Shown here: one piece after another, positions 18,391 through 36,237 of the stretch
How positions within the stretch are numbered: position 1 is the stretch's first letter
Layout: every line of letters starts with the position of its first letter
Virus record (IMG/VR): IMGVR_UViG_2718218136_000004
Strand: one strand, 5' to 3'
Origin: a virus
Lineage: Duplodnaviria > Heunggongvirae > Uroviricota > Caudoviricetes
DNA length: 56,412 nt
The notes under the pieces: generated by a model
The model's input: only the letters and a program-made list of their open reading frames with translations
Told to the model about the DNA's origin: nothing
Databases searched by the model: none
Translations under genes and position numbers: made by a program

Positions 18391-18538
18391 TAACAGTTCC
18401 CATCTGTAGGGGAGGGGCGGGTCAAATCTCTGCAACCCTGGCTGCTCAGTACCGCCGCCTGACCCTTCCTCACATCGCCGCAGGTTCGAAAACTTTTTTT
18501 TGGAAATGTGAACAAACGATTGATAGGTAAGACCGATT

Positions 18539-19021
18539 ATGTCAGGACCTCCGAAAACCCCGCCACGCCTGCATTTGATTCGAGGTAACCCCTCAAAGCG
18601 CCCCGTTAAAGACCACAAAAAAACCGCTAAAAAGGATGAAAAAGGTCTTCCTAAAATTCCGCAGCATTTAGGGGCTCAGGGGAAGTACTGGTTCAGGCGA
18701 ATGGCGGAAGAGCTGAATGCGGAAGGGATCATTTCTCAGCTTGATGCGCGTGCGCTCGAGCTGCTGGTGGAAGCCTACACCGAATATCGGCATCACTGCG
18801 AAACACTCGATGTTGAGGGGTATACCTACCGCACGGAAACGCAGAGCGGTGATGTACTGATTAAGGCGCACCCCGCGGCGGCAATGAAAGCGGATGCCTG
18901 GAAGCGGATCCGGGCAATGCTTGCAGAGTTTGGTATGTCACCGGCAAGCCGGGCTAAAGTAAATATCGCCGGACCGGATGATGTTGATCCGCTGGCGGAG
19001 CTTTTAAAAGCGAGAGACTGA
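18539..19021 (+). CDS. Terminase small subunit (P27 family)
   Basis: 160-aa ORF immediately upstream of and overlapping terL; similar architecture to the insert-encoded TerS. Confidence 0.75.
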   Translation: MSGPPKTPPRLHLIRGNPSKRPVKDHKKTAKKDEKGLPKIPQHLGAQGKYWFRRMAEELNAEGIISQLDARALELLVEAYTEYRHHCETLDVEGYTYRTETQSGDVLIKAHPAAAMKADAWKRIRAMLAEFGMSPASRAKVNIAGPDDVDPLAELLKARD

Positions 19022-20048
19022 TGGCAAAAGTGGCTGACGGGATCCGCTACGCCGAACGTGTTGTTGCAGGAGAAATTGTTGCTGGCGAATTTGTCCGCCT
19101 GGCCTGCCAGCGTTTTCTTGATGATCTGAAGTACGGCGAAGAGCGGGGGATTTATTTCAGTGAACCCCGTGCGCAGCACATCCTGAATTTCTACAAATTT
19201 GTGCCTCATGTAAAAGGGGCGCTGGCAGGCCAGCCCATTGAGTTGATGGACTGGCATGTATTTATCCTCATTAATATTTTTGGTTTTGTCATTCCGCTGG
19301 TCAATGAAGAGACCGGGGAAGTTGTCATGCGCAGCGATGGCAGCGGACGTCCGGTGATGGTGCGCCGGTTCCGGACGGCGTACAACGAAGTCGCCCGTAA
19401 AAACGCAAAATCAACTCTGTCATCGGGTATCGGCCTGTATATGACGGGGGCAGATGGTGAAGGCGGAGCTGAGGTGTATTCAGCCGCAACCACGCGTGAC
19501 CAGGCCAGAATCGTGTTTGAAGACGCCAAAAATATGGTCAGAAAAGCCCGGTCGACACTCGGGCGGTTGTTTGATTTCAACAAGCTGGCGATTTACCAGG
19601 AGCAGAGCGCATCAAAATTTGAACCGCTTTCTTCGGATGCAAACAACCTGGATGGTCTGAACATCCACTGCGCCATTATTGATGAGCTGCATGCACATAA
19701 AACCCGTGACGTGTGGGACGTTCTGGAAACGGCAACCGGTGCCCGTCTGCAGTCCCTTTTATTTGGTATCACCACGGCAGGGTTTAACAAGGAAGGGATT
19801 TGTTACGAGCAGCGTGATTACGCCATCAAGGTATTGCGTGGCTATAACAGCGACGTGGAGGGCGCGGTAAAAGACGACTCCTACTTTGCGATTATTTACA
19901 CCCTCGATGAGGGAGATGATCCGTTTGATGAAACGGTCTGGCAGAAAGCGAATCCTGGCCTGGGCATCTGTAAACGCTGGGATGATCTGCGTCGTCTGGC
20001 GAAAAAAGCGAAAGAACAGGTCTCTGCGCGGGTGAATTTTTTTACCAA
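19021..20048 (+). CDS. Terminase large subunit, 5' portion (ATPase domain), interrupted by insertion at 20042-20048
   Basis: N-terminal 342 codons align with the insert-encoded TerL up to ...ARVNFFTK; ORF then continues in frame into insert sequence and the integrase gene. Confidence 0.85.
20042..20048. repeat. attL crossover core (TTACCAA)
   Basis: Identical 7-bp core at 35490-35496; flanking sequence partially conserved (TT[T/C]TTACCAA). Confidence 0.5.
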
Positions 20049-20178
20049 GAAAGTAACATCACGCCGTAACAACAGTGCGACCTGTCCTGATTTTTTTAGT
20101 AACCAAATGAAAGAAAAAGTTTTTTTTCTTGTTCGTCGTTTTTGTTTTTTCTGGAAGGTTCTGGCTGTTTTCATCATT

Positions 20179-20200
20179 TGTGTATTGCACTGTGTATTGC
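20179..20200. repeat. Tandem TGTGTATTGC repeats near attL, candidate integrase arm-type binding sites
   Basis: TGTGTATTGCACTGTGTATTGC just upstream of int; near-identical GTGTATTGCGCTGTGTATTGC near attR. Confidence 0.45.
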
Positions 20201-20220
20201 AAAAACGGGTTATAAATCAC

Positions 20221-21444
20221 ATGGCGCTAAACAAACTGAGCGATAAAAAACTTCGTTCCCTGCTTGGACGCAGGAGTGAGAGGCAGGAAACCATCGCTGA
20301 TGGTAACGGGCTTTCGGTACGGGTCAGTAAATACGGATGTGTTAGTTTTGTTTTCTTTTACAGACTGGCGGGAAGGGGAACCGCGCCCATCTGGCTGACA
20401 CTTGGAAAATATCCTGATCTGAGTCTCAAATCAGCGAGAGAGATGCGCGATCAGTGTCGAACCTGGCTTGCGGAGGGCAGAGATCCACGGATTCAGATAA
20501 AAATTGAACGGGAAGCCACCTTGCAACCTGTTACCGTTCGTGAGGCACTTGAATACTGGCTTGATAATTATGCAATGGATAAGCGTAGGGGAGCAGAACA
20601 TATCAGGCAGTGCTTTGGTAAACATATTTATCCGGTGATTGGTCATGTACCACTTAGTGATTGCTCTATATCTATGTGGATCAAGTGTTTTGACAAAATA
20701 AAAAAAGTAGCACCTGTACAGGCCGGAGCTTTGTTGCGTATATCAAAACAGGCGCTTAAATTTTGTAGGGTAAGAAAATACGCGATTAGTCATGAAATTG
20801 ATGATCTTGAGGTCTGTGATGTGGGAAAAAAGTCTGCGCGAAGAAGCAGGGTTTTAACAGATGATGAAATCAGAGATTTATGGCGAAGTATTAATACTGA
20901 TTATGACAATCACGAATTATCATATGAAAACCGAATTATTTTACGTTTCCTGGTAGTTTTTGGTTGTCGACTGTCAGAAGTATTACTGTCGTCCTGGGTA
21001 GAGTGGGATTTTGATAAGAAATTATGGCGCGTTCCCGCTGATCATAGCAAAAATGGCAGGGAAATAATCAGACCGATTCCTGATGGCATGTTTAACTGGT
21101 TAGTTACGTTAAAAAAAATAACAGGTAACAAAGAAAATGTGATTGGGTTTGATATGCGTCAGTGTACGGCAAGCGTAACTATCGGTAAGACATGGAAAAG
21201 GATGAAACACTCGGAGAAATGGACGGCGCATGATATGCGAAGAGTGTTTGCCACAAAACTAAGTGATCATGGTTTTGAACATAATGTGGTTGAACAGTTG
21301 CTTGGGCACACATTAGGCGGTGTTGCCGGGGTTTATAACAGAAGCCAGTATATGGACAGAAAAAAAGAAGCTATGAACTGGTGGTACGACTATCTGAATA
21401 AGCAAATTAGTGGTGACAGTAATGATTCAAATAGTTACGCGTGA
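20221..21444 (+). CDS. int: P4-like tyrosine integrase of the satellite
   Basis: MALNKLSDKKLRSLLG... N-terminus typical of P4-family integrases; catalytic context FGCRLSEV, HDMRRVFAT, GVYNRSQY. Confidence 0.85.
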   Translation: MALNKLSDKKLRSLLGRRSERQETIADGNGLSVRVSKYGCVSFVFFYRLAGRGTAPIWLTLGKYPDLSLKSAREMRDQCRTWLAEGRDPRIQIKIEREATLQPVTVREALEYWLDNYAMDKRRGAEHIRQCFGKHIYPVIGHVPLSDCSISMWIKCFDKIKKVAPVQAGALLRISKQALKFCRVRKYAISHEIDDLEVCDVGKKSARRSRVLTDDEIRDLWRSINTDYDNHELSYENRIILRFLVVFGCRLSEVLLSSWVEWDFDKKLWRVPADHSKNGREIIRPIPDGMFNWLVTLKKITGNKENVIGFDMRQCTASVTIGKTWKRMKHSEKWTAHDMRRVFATKLSDHGFEHNVVEQLLGHTLGGVAGVYNRSQYMDRKKEAMNWWYDYLNKQISGDSNDSNSYA

Positions 21445-24639: not shown

Positions 24640-24954
24640 ATGAAAAAGAAAAATTCTGGCTTTACTGCCAGCGGTCACGCTCGGCCTGAAATCCGCCCCG
24701 GTGATATTTTCCGGGATAAATACGGCAGCACGATAACGATTAAAACCGTCGATGATTTTCGTGTGACCTATATCCGCGAAGGTTATGCGCATCCCTGCGT
24801 GTCGTCACATATGCGCTTTGACAGGGAGTTCACCCTGGTAAGCAAAGCACCACCAGCAGAATTAAGCGACATCGACAGAATCATGCGCGTTACAGGAATG
24901 GAACGCATTAAGGCAGTACGTGAAATTATTCGTGAACGGGGAAAGGCAAAATGA
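24640..24954 (+). CDS. Hypothetical protein
   Basis: 104-aa ORF overlapping the start of the replication gene. Confidence 0.45.
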   Translation: MKKKNSGFTASGHARPEIRPGDIFRDKYGSTITIKTVDDFRVTYIREGYAHPCVSSHMRFDREFTLVSKAPPAELSDIDRIMRVTGMERIKAVREIIRERGKAK

Positions 24955-27077
24955 AGCGCGCACCAAACTTAAAGCACCAGCCAGCCGACAAAATGACGGA
25001 GGTTATCATCTTTGCGGGTAGTGATGCGTGGAGCCATGCGAAAGAGTGGCAGGAATGGGCAGGTAAGCATATTGCCGCCGACAATGTGCCGCCTGTCGTT
25101 CTGTCAGATGAACACCTGAAAGATATTACCGGTTATCAAATTATTGATGATAGCCGTCAGTGTGTGCGTATTTACCGCGCAGGGCACATCACTGAACGTA
25201 GCCTCACACAGATCGTCACGTTGCTGGCTGTGGCTGGCGTGAAGACCGTATACGAATACGCGGGGATAACTGACACCAGCCCGGCGGATTTATCCGACCA
25301 GTTGCCTCGCCTCAAAGACGAATACGAGCGCGGGGAAAGTCTGGTGTTGCCCTTAAAGAAAAAAATCACAGAAAGCCCGGGTGATGATGAATTAAAGCCC
25401 CGCGTTGAAAGCCGCGCCGATGGTGTTTTCTGGGTAACGCCAAAAGTGGATAAGCAGTCAGGCGAAATTATCCGGCCTGAAACGTGGTTATGCTCCCCGC
25501 TTGAGCTACTGGGAACGGGGACAATCGGCAAAGAGCATTACCGCGTGATGCGCTGGAAAAAGCCAGCAAACCATGAAGTCATCACGATGGCGGTTCCGTG
25601 CGGTGGCATTGGCGACCGTGACGGCTGGCGGCTGCTGAAAGACCACGGACTGAACGTGACAACCAACGGTAAATACAGGGCTATCCTGGCTGACTGGATG
25701 CAGTTAAGCGGAAACCATGAGGAATGGCAGTTAAGCACAACAACGGGCTGGCATTTTGGCGCGTACATCATGCCGGACGGTTCGGTCATTGGTGATTGCG
25801 AAAAGCCAGTCCTGTTTACCGGAAAAACGGCTGCCGTTAATGGTTATTCCGTGGCAGGAACGGCGGAGGGCTGGCGCGACAGTGTGGCGCGACTGGCTGG
25901 TGGTAATCCGTCCATGATGCTGGGTGTGGCGGTATCGCTATCCGCACCATTAATCGGGCTGGTGGGTGCTGACGGCTTCGGGGTACATCTTTTCGAACAG
26001 TCATCGGCAGGTAAGACCACAACGCAGAACATCGCATCAAGTTTATGGGGAGAGCCGGACGCGCAGCGGCTGACCTGGTACGGCACAGCGTTAGGTATCG
26101 CCAACGAAGCAGAGGCACACAATGACGGGCTTTTACCCCTGGATGAAATAGGCCAGGCCGGAAACGCGCGGGAGGTGTCCACGTCAGCCTATACGCTGTT
26201 TAACGGTTCGGGGAAATTACAGGGGGCGAAGGACGGCGGCAACAGGGAGATCAAACACTGGCGCACGGTGGCAATCAGCACCGGAGAAATGGACGTTGAG
26301 ACATTCCTCAAAACGGAGGGGATAAAAGTCAAAGTGGGGCAGCTTGTCCGCCTGCTTAACGTTCCGATGGAAAAAGCCACGCAATTTCACGAATACAGCA
26401 CCGGAAAGGCGCACGCAGACGCGTTAAAGGATGCCTGGACAGAAAATCACGGGGCGGCGGGTCGTGAGTGGGTTAAATGGCTGGCAGAACACCAGCAGGA
26501 GGCAAAGGACACGGTAAGGACATGCCGTGAGCGGTGGCGCAACCTGATACCGGAGAGCTACGGCGAACAGGTTCACCGTGTGGGGGAGCGATTTGCCATA
26601 CTGGAGGCCGCGCTTGTGCTTTCAGGTCATGTTACTGGCTGGGATGAGCAGGAATGCCGCGATGCCATACAGCATAATTTTAATGCCTGGGTGAAGGAGT
26701 TCGGCACGGGTAACAGGGAATTTAAACAGATGGTTGAACAGGCAGAAGCTTTTTTAGCGTCGTTCGGATTCAGCAGATACCTTCCGTGGCCCAATACCGA
26801 CGAGCGTGATTTACCGATTAAAGAACTTGCCGGATACAGAAAGGGGAGTATCAGAAACGAAGATGACGAGTTCCGTTTTTACACGTTCCCGCATGTATTT
26901 GAGGGTGAGATAGCACAGGGATTTAATCCGTCTCACTTTGCCCGCGCGTTGAGTGCTGCCGGAATGCTGGAAGCGGGTAACGATCGCCGTTACAAGAAAA
27001 AGGCGCTCGGCAAAATTGGGGGGAAGCAGCATGTTTTTTACGTGCTGATGTTCCAGCCAGAAAGCGAAGAAGATTAA
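24951..27077 (+). CDS. Satellite replication initiator, primase/helicase-like P-loop NTPase (DUF927-like)
   Basis: 708-aa ORF with Walker A-like SSAGKTTTQN; immediately upstream of an iteron/AT-rich origin and an SSB gene. Confidence 0.6.
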   Translation: MKRAPNLKHQPADKMTEVIIFAGSDAWSHAKEWQEWAGKHIAADNVPPVVLSDEHLKDITGYQIIDDSRQCVRIYRAGHITERSLTQIVTLLAVAGVKTVYEYAGITDTSPADLSDQLPRLKDEYERGESLVLPLKKKITESPGDDELKPRVESRADGVFWVTPKVDKQSGEIIRPETWLCSPLELLGTGTIGKEHYRVMRWKKPANHEVITMAVPCGGIGDRDGWRLLKDHGLNVTTNGKYRAILADWMQLSGNHEEWQLSTTTGWHFGAYIMPDGSVIGDCEKPVLFTGKTAAVNGYSVAGTAEGWRDSVARLAGGNPSMMLGVAVSLSAPLIGLVGADGFGVHLFEQSSAGKTTTQNIASSLWGEPDAQRLTWYGTALGIANEAEAHNDGLLPLDEIGQAGNAREVSTSAYTLFNGSGKLQGAKDGGNREIKHWRTVAISTGEMDVETFLKTEGIKVKVGQLVRLLNVPMEKATQFHEYSTGKAHADALKDAWTENHGAAGREWVKWLAEHQQEAKDTVRTCRERWRNLIPESYGEQVHRVGERFAILEAALVLSGHVTGWDEQECRDAIQHNFNAWVKEFGTGNREFKQMVEQAEAFLASFGFSRYLPWPNTDERDLPIKELAGYRKGSIRNEDDEFRFYTFPHVFEGEIAQGFNPSHFARALSAAGMLEAGNDRRYKKKALGKIGGKQHVFYVLMFQPESEED

Positions 27078-27099: not shown

Positions 27100-27255
27100 A
27101 AATTTTGCGGGTTATGCGGGTTATTTCTGTGGATAAATCAGTATCCATATGATTATTAAAGGAATGACAGGAAAATCGTAACCCGCAAAATACCCAAAAT
27201 AACCCGCAAAACGGCAGTTATAACCCGCAAAAGTGCGATTATAACCCGCAGAATT
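27100..27255. repeat. Candidate satellite origin of replication: GCGGGTTAT x2, AT-rich spacer, ATAACCCGCAAAA x4
   Basis: Inverted iteron sets flanking an AT-rich segment immediately 3' of the replication gene. Confidence 0.6.
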
Positions 27256-28332: not shown

Positions 28333-28605
28333 AGCGATAAAGGCCTGGATTTTTTTCAGGTCTTTTTTCAGGTTTTGTAAATTATTTGTTCGTGGTTGTT
28401 CCAGGTTGTTCGGTGATTCTGGCTGATGTTTACATACTGATTTTTATGTATATGTTGGCGTGTGGCACTCAGACGTGAGCCGCCACAATGCCGCCTGACC
28501 CCCTGCGCGATGCCGGGTTGATCTGCGAGATGCCGAGAGTGTCGGGCGGCGCTCCCTCCGTGTTGGTTTCACGTCCTGAATCTTAACCAATACGAGAAAA
28601 CCTTC

Positions 28606-32683: not shown

Positions 32684-32971
32684 ACAGGAGCAAAACAGGC
32701 TGATACGTGGACTGATAAGGCAGCGTGACTTATGGAAGACACAGGAGACAGGGCACAAAGCCAACAGGACAGAGCGCACAGAACGCACCACAGCGAAGCG
32801 ATTAACCGACCGTGACCGCGAGGTCATGGAATGTTTTCGCAATCGCTGGTGAGGCCGTCAGAGGGGGTGGGGGAGGTTTTCAGGACGAAACCGCCCCTGC
32901 CGGACACCGACCGCCTCCTCAAATTTTTGTGCACGGGAATTTTTTTGAAAATAATTGGGCGAAAAAAGAAC

Positions 32972-33328: not shown

Positions 33329-34973
33329 GTACGCAGAAGGCGTAAAAAACGGCAAAATTACGGCCTGTAAACGACTGAAACAGGCCGTTAAACGGTATTT
33401 TTATGACCTTGAAAACCCCCTTTACACGTTCGAACCGGAGGTCGTGGAGCGGTTTATTGCCTTTTCCAGGGTGTGTCCGCACGTAAAAGGCGCAATGCGT
33501 GGTAGCCCCATTGAGCTGGAGCCGTGGCAGCAGTTCGCCTTTGCGTGCATCCTGGGCTTTAAGGTTAAGGCCACCGGACGGCGCAAATACACCAGCGCAT
33601 TCATTGAAGTACCGCGAAAAAATGCCAAATCCACGGTCGCCGCTATCCTGGCTAACTGGTTTCTGGTTATGGAAAACGGGCAGCAGGATATTTACACCGC
33701 CGCCGTGAGTCGTGATCAGGCGCGGATCGTGTTTGATGATGCGCGTCAGATGTGCCTTTTATCCCGACCGTTACGAAAGCGGGTAAATATTCAGGCACAC
33801 AAGGTGATACACCCGAAAACCAACAGCCTGTTAAAGCCACTGGCAGCAAAAGCGGCAACCATTGAAGGTACAAACCCGAGTCTTGCCATTGTAGATGAAT
33901 ATCACCTGCACCCTGACAACGGGGTTTATTCCGCGCTTGAACTGGGAATGGGGGCGCGTCCGGAGGGGTTATTATTTGCCATCACCACATCGGGGAGCAA
34001 CGTTGTTTCAGCCTGTAAACAACACTACGACTATTGCTGCCAGATACTGGATGGTGAAGAGGTGAACGAATCCATGTTCGTACTGATTTACGAGCTGGAT
34101 GATGAAAGCGAGGTTGACGATCCGGCGATGTGGATAAAGGCGAATCCCAATATCGATGTTTCCGTCGATCGTGAAAAACTGGCCTCAACCATCCAGAAAG
34201 CGCGGGGTATTCCGTCGCAGTGGGTGGAAATGCTCACCAAGCGATTCAATATCTGGTGTCAGGGGGCTACGCCGTGGATGGGTAACGGTGCATGGGCGGA
34301 GTGCGCCGGAACGTTCGCGGAGGCGGATTTATACGGGCAGGAGTGCTACGTGGGGCTGGACTTATCATCAACCAGCGATATTTCTAGCGTGTGCTATGCC
34401 TTTCCGGTCGGTAAAAAGATTATGCTGGTTTCCCGTCACTATCTGCCGGAATTTCAGTTACAGAACCCCGCCAATAAAAACCGCGCCATTTATCGCCAGT
34501 GGGTAAAGGCGGGCTGGATACGCACAACACCGGGTGACTGCATTGATTATGACCGTATCCGTGATGACATCATGGTGGATGCAGAGAATTTCAGTATCAG
34601 GCTGGTGGGCTTCGATACATGGAACGCCACTCACCTGAGAACACAGCTACAGGGGGCGGGATTTGAGGTGGAGCCGTTCCCGCAAACGTACCTTCGTTTC
34701 AGTCCGGCGGCGAAATCGTTCGAAGTTTTTGTTAACCGGAAGGTGATTGTGCATCGTGGTGATCCGGTGCTGGCCTGGTCAATGAGTAATGTTGTGATGC
34801 AGAGTGACGCGAACGCCAATATCAAGCCGAACAAGAAAAAATCATCCAACAAGATAGACCCGAGCGTTGCGGCGCTGATGGCGTTTGGCACATTCCAGGC
34901 AGAGCATGAGGAATTTGCATTCGATATGAGCGACAGCCACAAAGAGCGGCTTGCGACGTTTGATGGTGTGTAA
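33312..34973 (+). CDS. Satellite terminase large subunit, intact
   Basis: 553-aa ORF co-linear with both fragments of the split prophage terL (ATPase and nuclease domains). Confidence 0.85.
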   Translation: MTAWHEYAEGVKNGKITACKRLKQAVKRYFYDLENPLYTFEPEVVERFIAFSRVCPHVKGAMRGSPIELEPWQQFAFACILGFKVKATGRRKYTSAFIEVPRKNAKSTVAAILANWFLVMENGQQDIYTAAVSRDQARIVFDDARQMCLLSRPLRKRVNIQAHKVIHPKTNSLLKPLAAKAATIEGTNPSLAIVDEYHLHPDNGVYSALELGMGARPEGLLFAITTSGSNVVSACKQHYDYCCQILDGEEVNESMFVLIYELDDESEVDDPAMWIKANPNIDVSVDREKLASTIQKARGIPSQWVEMLTKRFNIWCQGATPWMGNGAWAECAGTFAEADLYGQECYVGLDLSSTSDISSVCYAFPVGKKIMLVSRHYLPEFQLQNPANKNRAIYRQWVKAGWIRTTPGDCIDYDRIRDDIMVDAENFSIRLVGFDTWNATHLRTQLQGAGFEVEPFPQTYLRFSPAAKSFEVFVNRKVIVHRGDPVLAWSMSNVVMQSDANANIKPNKKKSSNKIDPSVAALMAFGTFQAEHEEFAFDMSDSHKERLATFDGV

Positions 34974-35049
34974 CGGAATGGATGAGAGAGGACAATGCTC
35001 ATTTAATGGAATAAATTTTCAGTATTATCGGCACCCACTTTCAGGGATG

Positions 35050-35210
35050 TTTTTGCGGGTTATTTGAGTGGTGTTTGCGGGTTATTTTGAATGTCTTGCG
35101 GGTTACATTCTGGCTGATATTTAGATACGTTGTTTTTTAACGTATTGATATTAAAGAGTAAAAAATACTTAGCACGCGAAGATAACCCGCTAACCCGCAT
35201 AACCCGCACT
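35050..35210. repeat. Second iteron cluster near the satellite right end: TTGCGGGTTA(T/C) x3, AT-rich spacer with palindrome, ATAACCCGC x3
   Basis: Same motif and inverted architecture as the cluster at 27100-27255. Confidence 0.5.
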
Positions 35211-35393
35211 GTTTTGTATATATATACGAAAAATTGCATTCAGGGGGGGATCGAAATTTCTACTGCCTCTTATCTCTTTGAGTGCTCACCTCGTCAGATT
35301 GTTACACACAAGAAATAAAAAATGCTTCGCGATGGTAGGTCGAATCACTGTATCAAAAAACGGTGTGTATCAGCATTAAAACAATACAGATAC

Positions 35394-35414
35394 GTGTATT
35401 GCGCTGTGTATTGC
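35394..35414. repeat. GTGTATTGC repeats near attR, candidate integrase arm-type sites
   Basis: GTGTATTGCGCTGTGTATTGC; further GTGTAT / CAATAC copies at 35361-35390. Confidence 0.45.
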
Positions 35415-35489
35415 TCGATGATTTATAAAGACTGTTTTTTCATGTTAACTGATTGATATACAGGTGATTTTAAAAAACTTGAAATATTC

Positions 35490-35496
35490 TTACCAA
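35490..35496. repeat. attR crossover core (TTACCAA)
   Basis: Direct repeat of 20042-20048. Confidence 0.5.
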
Positions 35497-36226
35497 ACAC
35501 ATGAATGTGTGGGTAACAGCAGAGTCTGCCTGGATGGACATGATTAAGTGGGAGAAGTGCGAATACATTGCCCCGCGACATGAGCTGAAAACGTATCCCA
35601 TGTGGGTCGGCGTTGACCTTGCTCATAAGATTGATATCTGTGCGGCGGCAAAACTCTGGCGAACGGATAACGGGCATGTTCATGCCGATTTTAAATTCTG
35701 GCTCCCGGAAGGACGGCTGGAACGATGCTCGCGGCAGCAGGCAGAACTTTACCGGAAGTGGGCGGAGATGGATAAGCTGATTCTGACGGATGGTGATGTT
35801 ATCGATCATGCTCAGATAAAAAGTGACTTACTGGAATGGATTGGTGGTGAAAACCTCAGGGAACTGGGATTTGACCCGTGGAGCGCGATGCAGTTCAGCC
35901 TGGCACTGGCTGAAGAAGGGATACCGCTGGTGGAGGTTCCGCAGACGGTTCGCAATCTGTCAGAGGCCATGAAGGAAACGGAATCACTGGTCTATGCCGG
36001 ACGTTTCCATCACAGCAATCATCCGGTCATGAACTGGATGATGTCTAACGTTACGGTAAAACCGGACAAAAACGACAATATCTTCCCGAATAAATCCACG
36101 CTGGAAGCCAAAATCGACGGCCCTGTTGCGATGTTTACAGCAATGAGCCGGATGCTGGTCAATGGTGGTGAACCGGAGCCGGATCTGTCTGAACATCTGG
36201 TCAGCGTGGGCATCCGCTCGCTTTAA
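35490..36226 (+). CDS. Terminase large subunit, 3' portion (nuclease domain), continuation of the gene interrupted at 20048
   Basis: Translation ...[14 protein letters not shown]... is co-linear with the insert TerL segment ...TKRFNIWCQGATPW...; downstream motifs also conserved. Confidence 0.85.
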
Positions 36227-36237
36227 CCGAGGTCATT

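Follow-up and report, generated by a model that had tools for sequence, protein, structure and literature searches.

The stretch of DNA analyzed here (the window; 56,412 nucleotides, IMG/VR record IMGVR_UViG_2718218136_000004, Caudoviricetes) carries an HK97-like prophage whose terL gene is interrupted by a 15,448-bp insert. This insert is a capsid-forming phage-inducible chromosomal island (cf-PICI), a class of satellite described previously (10.1101/2022.09.08.507074). Between 28606 and 34973 it encodes an HK97-type capsid, protease, portal, connectors, an HNH endonuclease, a P27-family TerS, and TerL, and upstream of this set lie a DUF4222 gene, rep (24951-27077, plus strand), ssb, and perC. 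The product of rep is a 708-aa DUF927 initiator-helicase of the SaPI (Staphylococcus aureus pathogenicity island) Rep/SCCmec Cch family. The element contains two clusters of a short repeat, or iteron, GCGGGTTA: module 1 (M1), next to rep, and module 2 (M2), at the right end, which is the subject of this work. The M2 repeats begin 82 bp past the stop codon of the cf-PICI terL (34973) and end 283 bp short of the attR core (35490-35496), after terL and before attR, where a preliminary description of the window had placed them.

Anatomy of the two repeat clusters

M2 consists of two opposed sets of three iterons around an A+T-rich spacer. In the left arm (35055-35105, plus strand), the GCGGGTTA repeats start at 35055, 35077, and 35098, at intervals of 22 and 21 bp, or two helical turns, and all homologous copies of M2 keep this arm with identical spacing. 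The spacer (35106-35182) is 77 bp long and 70% A+T, and is followed by a right arm (35183-35207, minus strand) in which three iterons, at 35183, 35191, and 35200, abut one another. In extended form, the forward repeats read TTTGCGGGTTAT at 35052-35063 and 35074-35085 and CTTGCGGGTTAC at 35095-35106, and the reverse repeats make up the string GATAACCCGC-TAACCCGC-ATAACCCGC at 35181-35207. All of the repeats and the AT-rich spacer that the preliminary description had quoted for 35050-35210 were present at those coordinates. The 8-mer core occurred 17 times in the window, compared to 1.49 expected and a maximum of 5 in 100 dinucleotide-preserving shuffles, and 12 of the 17 copies fell into two clusters, six at 27107-27249 and six at 35055-35207. 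No third cluster was detected inside the element, even with one mismatch permitted.

M1, the core origin (27107-27249), likewise has opposed iteron sets around an A+T-rich region (2+4; 3+3 in M2). Two abutting forward iterons, at 27107 and 27116, are followed by a 55-bp spacer (69% A+T) and by four reverse iterons at 21-bp intervals (27179-27249). M1 starts 30 bp past the rep stop codon, immediately 3' of the gene, whereas M2 lies 7,978 bp past the end of rep and 7,948 bp from M1. On the excised circle M2 is nearly opposite M1, with arcs of 7.95 kb and 7.50 kb. M2 had been described as having the same unit and arrangement as 27100-27255, which is correct for the repeat, present six times in each cluster; the layouts, however, are mirror images, each a 180-degree rotation of the other, and not parallel copies. 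The cargo between the modules comprises ssb, perC, and the capsid and packaging genes, and M2 therefore comes to lie at the right end, by attR.

Both spacers are about 70% A+T, in an element that is 50% A+T overall. When the 40-bp stretches of the element were ranked by nearest-neighbour stability, the M2 spacer (35133-35172) was the second least stable and the M1 spacer the fourth, with z values of about +3.5 and +3.1, respectively. The M2 spacer also contains an exact sequence match to the integration host factor (IHF) consensus (TATCAATACGTTA, 35138-35150, minus strand), one of only 4 such matches in the 56-kb window. Other copies of M2 retain the IHF core and vary at the N4 positions. A palindrome pointed out previously, TACGTT-N7-AACGTA, is indeed present in the spacer at 35126-35144, but it is not conserved in the homologous copies of loci L004 and L003 and is probably incidental.

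A separate observation concerns the start of the spacer, where 20 positions of a 22-nt sequence, ATTCTGGCTGATNTTTANATAC (35107-35128), agree with a site that precedes the capsid gene by 191 bp (28416-28437). Other cf-PICIs have weaker versions (15-19 of 22) at the same capsid-upstream position, and in the window the capsid-upstream copy overlaps a possible promoter, TTTACA-16-TATGTT.

Directly 3' of the abutting iterons is a 29-nt block, ACTGTTTTG(TA)5CGAAAAATTG (35208-35236), that is common to right-end and origin-adjacent copies of M2. In other genera, where the iterons differ, a TGTTTT..TATATA motif occupies the equivalent position, and we infer that the block may serve as an unwinding element. 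Its (TA)n tract (35217-35226) ranges from 5 to 7 units among copies and the G-run that comes next (35241-35247) from about 5 to 9, which suggests that both are slippage-prone, as these lengths differ between otherwise near-identical copies. Beyond the 29-nt block, a further right-end block (35237-35345) travels with M2 in E. coli PICIs. Among right-end copies, 3 of 48 columns in the repeat cores were variable compared to 40 of 77 in the spacer, although the invariance of the repeats is partly circular because many loci in this conservation profile were gathered by exact repeat match.

Rep specificity and distribution of the modules

The window Rep matched Pfam DUF927 (E=5.8e-46) and the PDB entries 8tch, 'Pathogenicity island protein' (E=3.5e-15), and 5dgk, Cch (E=0.0023), while its match to NCBIfam Cch1 (E=2.2e-10) was under the family cut-off. 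These matches identify it as a self-loading helicase of the SaPI Rep/Cch family (DUF927, MCM-like). In SaPI Rep, a C-terminal winged helix reads the iterons (PMC9371898). The corresponding reader in the window is likely the C-terminal ~110-120 aa (about nt 26718-27074), which gave a sub-threshold match to the Pfam family HTH_56, 'Cch helix turn helix' (E=6e-4; 20.3 bits versus a cut-off of 26.2).

Comparison of Rep relatives pointed to the same domain. An Escherichia albertii Rep (L099, 10001-12136) is 95-100% identical to the window Rep over ~600 aa, yet only 13-39% identical in the last ~110 aa, and its M1 and distal M2 are both built of GGGACAAG. Because a near-identical Rep with a replaced C terminus has the repeats of both modules changed to match, we interpret it as a domain swap that arose in nature and that locates the determinant of specificity. 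Reps with divergent N termini and a conserved C-terminal domain retain GCGGGTTA. Over all locus pairs, C-terminal identity was 0.71 where the repeat was the same and 0.47 where it differed, and some pairs with cores 0.96 identical had C-terminal domains only 0.61-0.75 identical and different repeats. Repeat specificity, as judged from these comparisons, tracks the C-terminal domain of Rep. The small DUF4222 protein encoded upstream of rep was also considered as a reader. It was rejected since the DUF4222 proteins of GCGGGTTA elements are just 48-50% identical to that of the window, while the Rep C-terminal domains of these elements stay conserved.

A survey of Rep relatives covered 80 species-representative genomes, with 10-kb flanking regions. 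The repeat of each locus was called de novo using only the 220 bp that follow rep, and the whole locus was scanned for it; M1 calls are therefore free of ascertainment bias, and distal clusters were detectable only with intact repeats. An M1-type module followed rep in 74 of 74 relatives with a callable iteron, and the remaining 6 of the 80 loci had no clear repeat. Adjacent double modules of about 260-330 bp were present at 41 loci. At 10 loci, M1 was accompanied 0.3-9 kb downstream by a distal cluster built of the 8-mer specific to that locus, and at 23, of which 14 had a full 10-kb flank, M1 was the only module. Two modules are thus the family norm (51 of 74 loci with a callable repeat), and at every two-module locus the M2 repeat was the same as the local M1 repeat. 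It had been thought unusual for one element to have two ori-like clusters; on these counts it is not, and the separation of the clusters is the special part.

The adjacent double modules were built of at least 12 different 8-mers, such as GTGGGTTA, CGTGGTTC, ACGGGTTA, GTTGGTTC, GGGACAAC, and TGTTGTCT, and further TTATCCCA, TCGGTTCA, GTCGGTTC, TTGTACCA, GACACACT, and GTCGGGTA. Split layouts with cognate repeats occurred in several genera and covered at least five repeat specificities. In Rosenbergiella, Serratia, Chimaeribacter, Lonsdalea, Pantoea, and Limnobaculum, the distal copies had the anatomy of M2 made with GTTGGTTC or GGTCGGTT, in which three spaced repeats are followed by an A+T spacer, by three inverted repeats that abut one another, and by TGTTTT..TATATA. 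This distribution indicates that the double module is the common state and that the split state arose repeatedly. In Rosenbergiella, Chimaeribacter, Lonsdalea, and Pantoea (L115, L133, L134, and L156), a direct repeat, GTAAGACAnnGTAAGACA, stands immediately 5' of the distal module; the E. coli copies have no counterpart of it.

Among 5,426 complete E. coli genomes searched by BLAST, M2-related sequence was present in 371 and M1-related sequence in 603. The same search of phage and plasmid collections returned no origin with these repeats, and the sole match to M2 there was a 75-bp segment of a 2-kb fragment record from an O157 lysate. The preliminary description had allowed that the repeats might be an unrelated family widespread in the host chromosome, but clusters of GCGGGTTA were found solely in PICI-type islands. 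The prototype cf-PICI EcCIEDL933 and 12 other GCGGGTTA-type loci have contiguous modules after rep, with M1 and M2 ~45 bp apart, and no such cluster follows terL. The split arrangement, with M1 after rep and M2 at the right end by attR, was found in the window and in many islands, including cf-PICIs at prophage terL, yifB, and cspD/clpS and a non-capsid island at tRNA-Gly. The space equivalent to M2 in EcCIEDL933, between the last gene and attR (L002, 19378-19800), contains 4-5 copies of a ~30-nt unit, GGCGCGGTAACTNNNTGATATT..., each followed by a short hairpin-forming sequence.

Possible functions of the right-end module

We propose that the satellite's own DUF927 initiator-helicase has an iteron origin made up of two modules, of which M2 (35055-35236) is the second, and we put the probability of this reading at roughly 0.6. 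M2 is taken to be a Rep-cognate origin module because its repeat matches that of M1 and because the repeat follows the Rep C-terminal domain. That M2 is cognate to the resident Rep is well supported by these sequence comparisons, whereas Rep binding, IHF binding, melting, and a contribution to replication at M2 are predicted. Compared with its relatives, M2 appears as the detached half of an origin type that is usually contiguous beside rep.

In the proposed mechanism, the putative C-terminal helix-turn-helix domain of Rep would bind the six M2 repeats, along with those of M1, after induction. IHF would bend the M2 spacer, and Rep hexamers would load and melt either the A+T spacer or the (TA)n block. 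M2 could then act in cis in one of two ways: Rep would load at it as at a second site, or it would assist M1, as an auxiliary origin region, through Rep-mediated looping, which would be the arrangement known from ori and crr of phage P4.

Several observations weigh against this proposal. The data do not separate a second origin from an enhancer or a control site. M2 is not universally required, since the 14 full-flank relatives noted above have M1 alone. Some E. coli islands carry a right-end GCGGGTTA module next to a non-cognate Rep. These orphans accompany a P4-family primase with CTGTCTACC repeats (L004 and L179; 12022-12174 in L004), a P4-family primase with CCTCTACC-type repeats (L055, 475-605), a P4-like Rep with nine TGTTCACC repeats (L060 and L065, about 375-528), or a DUF927 Rep with a complete adjacent double module of its own, built of GGGACAAC (L180, 11936-12174). 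Strains K-15KW01 and RIVM_C036204 are examples that carry an orphan. They make up ~3 of 13 right-end E. coli copies, a BLAST-ascertained figure in which Rep was checked in part of the copies, and at least one orphan-bearing genome (H86) has no GCGGGTTA-type M1 anywhere. Because right-end modules occur beside unrelated Reps, the module can persist without a resident cognate Rep. An AlphaFold model of Rep, made from a 10-sequence alignment, had a mean predicted local distance difference test (pLDDT) score of 45, and of <50 over the C-terminal domain, too low to confirm the fold of the proposed reader. Finally, the conservation statistics for the repeats are biased by exact-match ascertainment. 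Given the orphans and the 14 relatives with no second module within 10 kb, M2 may be accessory, or a relic in some hosts.

The main rival follows from the last of these points: M2 might be a non-functional relic of a contiguous origin that rides in a right-end block exchanged among PICIs by recombination. Orphan copies beside unrelated Reps, one of them in an element with a complete origin of other specificity, are what such a history could leave behind, as are the relatives with M1 only. The orphans would reflect either rep cassettes that were swapped, with the distal module left in place, or use of the module in trans, and rep cassettes have been swapped between otherwise near-identical cf-PICIs, such as L038 and L055. 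A relic would not be expected, however, to recur in split form in several genera with cognate repeats in intact number, spacing, and orientation, nor to keep its repeat cores while spacers and flanks diverged by 15-30%, and in the window the resident Rep is cognate. We therefore regard a purely vestigial M2 as unlikely.

An equally doubtful but more far-reaching idea is that M2 is a portable origin cassette that acts at a distance and in trans. In elements with a cognate Rep, it would pair with M1 by Rep-mediated looping over the cargo, as a split origin like ori and crr of phage P4. In the orphan-bearing islands (L004, L055, L060, and L180), it would let the DUF927 Rep of another PICI, whether co-resident or newly arrived, replicate the island, so that one satellite would hitch-hike on the replication of another. 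An adjoining cos-like motif, described below, could add cross-packaging in some lineages.

A second array of initiator repeats outside the core origin is the defining layout of plasmid copy-control loci, and M2, as an array cognate to Rep, has this layout. It might then titrate Rep or pair with M1 to restrain initiation, as do P1 incA and F incC. We consider such a role still less likely than the preceding two: a satellite requires burst replication after induction and not restraint, M2 has a full origin layout in which opposed repeats surround the second least stable DNA of the element and adjoin a (TA)n block, and it is contiguous with M1 in most relatives, which would be unusual for a control array.

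It is improbable that M2 is a Rep-controlled promoter or operator, serving a small open reading frame (ORF)-ssb operon in the adjacent copies and, at the right end, int across attP after circularization. In adjacent copies the 29-nt (TA)n block does stop 13 nt before the start codon of the ORF, and int is the next gene past the right end on the excised circle. A consensus scan, however, found no sigma-70-like promoter or terminator on the plus strand of M2, where the putative -35 lies inside the repeats and is a poor match. An Rfam scan of 34900-35600 and of the homologous L004 region returned no known RNA family, just sub-threshold plant miRNA noise.

A cos or pac accessory site for the satellite terminase was suggested by the position of M2 just past terL, and was rejected for the repeats. 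Such a site would track the terminase type and mark the packaged ends, and M2 appears to do neither. The TerS and TerL of EcCIEDL933 are 87% and 92% identical to those of the window, yet EcCIEDL933 has its copy beside the origin instead of after terL. M2 also occurs in classical (capsid-redirecting) PICIs of the EcCICFT073 kind, which have a lambda-like cosN elsewhere (e.g., L004), and the repeats track Rep and not the terminase. The cos region of the cf-PICI is more probably the HNH-terS spacer (32853-32971). The record of a particle-derived cf-PICI, LR881103, ends in this spacer, at ~32889 in window coordinates, although its ends are possibly not physical ends. This record (LR881103.1, L187; 16,548 bp) was deposited as a phage, 'Escherichia phage vB_KppS-Ant', from an induced lysate. 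It is a cf-PICI with int, a P4-type primase, capsid, portal, HNH, TerS, and TerL genes, and no tail genes save one ORF annotated as a tape-measure protein.

The block 3' of the right-end module in several other PICIs does share a 23-31-nt motif, ACCG-CCGCCTCNTCAAATTTTTRYRCAC..GAAWT, with the cf-PICI HNH-terS spacer (L003 3770-3880, minus strand; L004 12195-12315; L184 12180-12300; compare window 32905-32935). In those PICIs the local alignment scores of 32-34 were reached by 0 of 500 shuffles, but in the right-end block of the window (35237-35345) the motif is degenerate and not significant. ACCGCCGCCT is likewise common to the block 3' of the module and to the HNH-terS spacer of the prophage itself (window 18451-18461). 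HNH-dependent terminases could use the motif as a cos-like site, even in islands that lack capsid genes. For M2 itself, we consider a packaging role very improbable.

Least probable of all is that M2, ~280 bp from the attR core, forms part of the attP arms as Int or Xis sites, a reading that we rejected because the same module is found at at least five attachment sites (prophage terL, cspD/clpS, tRNA-Gly, yejO, and yifB, as mapped in E. coli islands) and alongside four types of integrase, and is 8 kb away from att in EcCIEDL933, rather than following the integrase or att site in sequence and position. The att arms are already accounted for by other features: a tandem repeat, GTGTATTGCNCTGTGTATTGC, occurs once per arm (20180-20200 and 35394-35414) and likely provides the integrase arm-type sites, and an exact IHF-consensus match (35446-35458) lies between the right-arm copy and the att core. 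On these comparisons, M2 is independent of both integrase type and packaging type. Of the four roles first suggested for M2, a second origin and an initiator-binding site thus survive, while those in packaging and attP architecture do not.

The 7-bp attR core, TTACCAA (35490-35496), is repeated at attL (20042-20048); the N-terminal part of the prophage terL stops near 20050, and the C-terminal part restarts at 35487. When the flanks were joined with a single TTACCAA, the resulting sequence was present as one continuous terL in 905 genomes of E. coli, with identities of up to 99.7%. As the cf-PICI lies inside the prophage terL, the satellite disables a packaging gene of a potential helper until excision. 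The same junction of cf-PICI terL, M2, and the 3' part of the prophage terL was present in many IMG/VR loci (e.g., L008, L009, L017, L024, L033, L052, and L084). The two parts of the prophage terL fall within 19021-21444 and 35487-36230 in the window, and the 807-aa ORF at 19021-21444 is an artefact of the terL N terminus reading through into the int region. Short repeats of the TTGTTCG(T/G)G type occur upstream of the capsid operon (window 28386-28415) and near attR of a classical PICI (L004 12395-12430), and a common regulator, for instance AlpA or Xis, may bind them.

Under the two-module reading, a large enterobacterial satellite family that includes cf-PICIs would normally have a mirror-image double module, beyond the published single-locus origin. 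The halves of this origin have repeatedly come apart, with as much as 9 kb of cargo between them, and the distal half can remain when replication cassettes are exchanged. If M2 is active, minimal replicons and deletion designs for such islands must include it, the cargo would lie between two Rep-loading sites, and cross-talk among co-resident satellites would become testable. For annotation, the ~200 bp that follow rep indicate the origin repeat type, and the last ~110 residues of Rep indicate the specificity.

Comparison with known origins

In published SaPI and PICI origins, short opposed repeats flank an A+T-rich melting region right after rep (PMC9371898, PMC6092414). No mention of a double, split, or distal origin module was found in the descriptions of PICIs and SaPIs consulted, including PMC9371898, PMC6092414, and 10.1101/2022.09.08.507074. 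The window shares with the origins of SaPIbov1, SaPI1, and EcCICFT073 a self-loading helicase of the same family, opposed repeats, an M1 that is 3' of rep, and probably a C-terminal repeat reader. It differs in that the published origin is a single locus after rep, whereas the family of the window typically has two mirror-image modules, and in that M2 stands beyond the cargo, at a distance of 7.9 kb, with an extra (TA)n block and an IHF-type site.

Several iteron plasmids also spread the repeat arrays of one initiator over kilobases, as in gamma, alpha, and beta of R6K, incC and incA of P1, and incB and incC of F. Such arrays are thought to communicate by initiator-mediated looping, either activating distant origins or restraining copy number. 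The likeness to M1 and M2 is in the several arrays of one initiator's repeats, dispersed over kilobases. The initiators themselves are unrelated (pi, RepA, and RepE), these replicons are stable plasmids and not induced satellites, and M2, unlike the plasmid arrays, has a complete origin layout of its own.

The ori and crr regions of phage P4 reportedly share TGTTCACC repeats to which the alpha protein binds. P4 is likewise a satellite, with two cis regions kilobases apart that carry the initiator's own repeat, and its crr is required in cis for replication (10.64898/2026.03.30.715334). The initiators are of different types, in that the window Rep has no match to TIGR01613, the model for which the Rep of L004 scores E=4.2e-30, and thus is not an alpha-type primase-helicase. 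The repeat sequence also differs, and the two regions are contiguous in most relatives of the window Rep. With six GCGGGTTA in each of two clusters kilobases apart, the split layout of the window nevertheless resembles, by analogy, that of P4 ori and crr.

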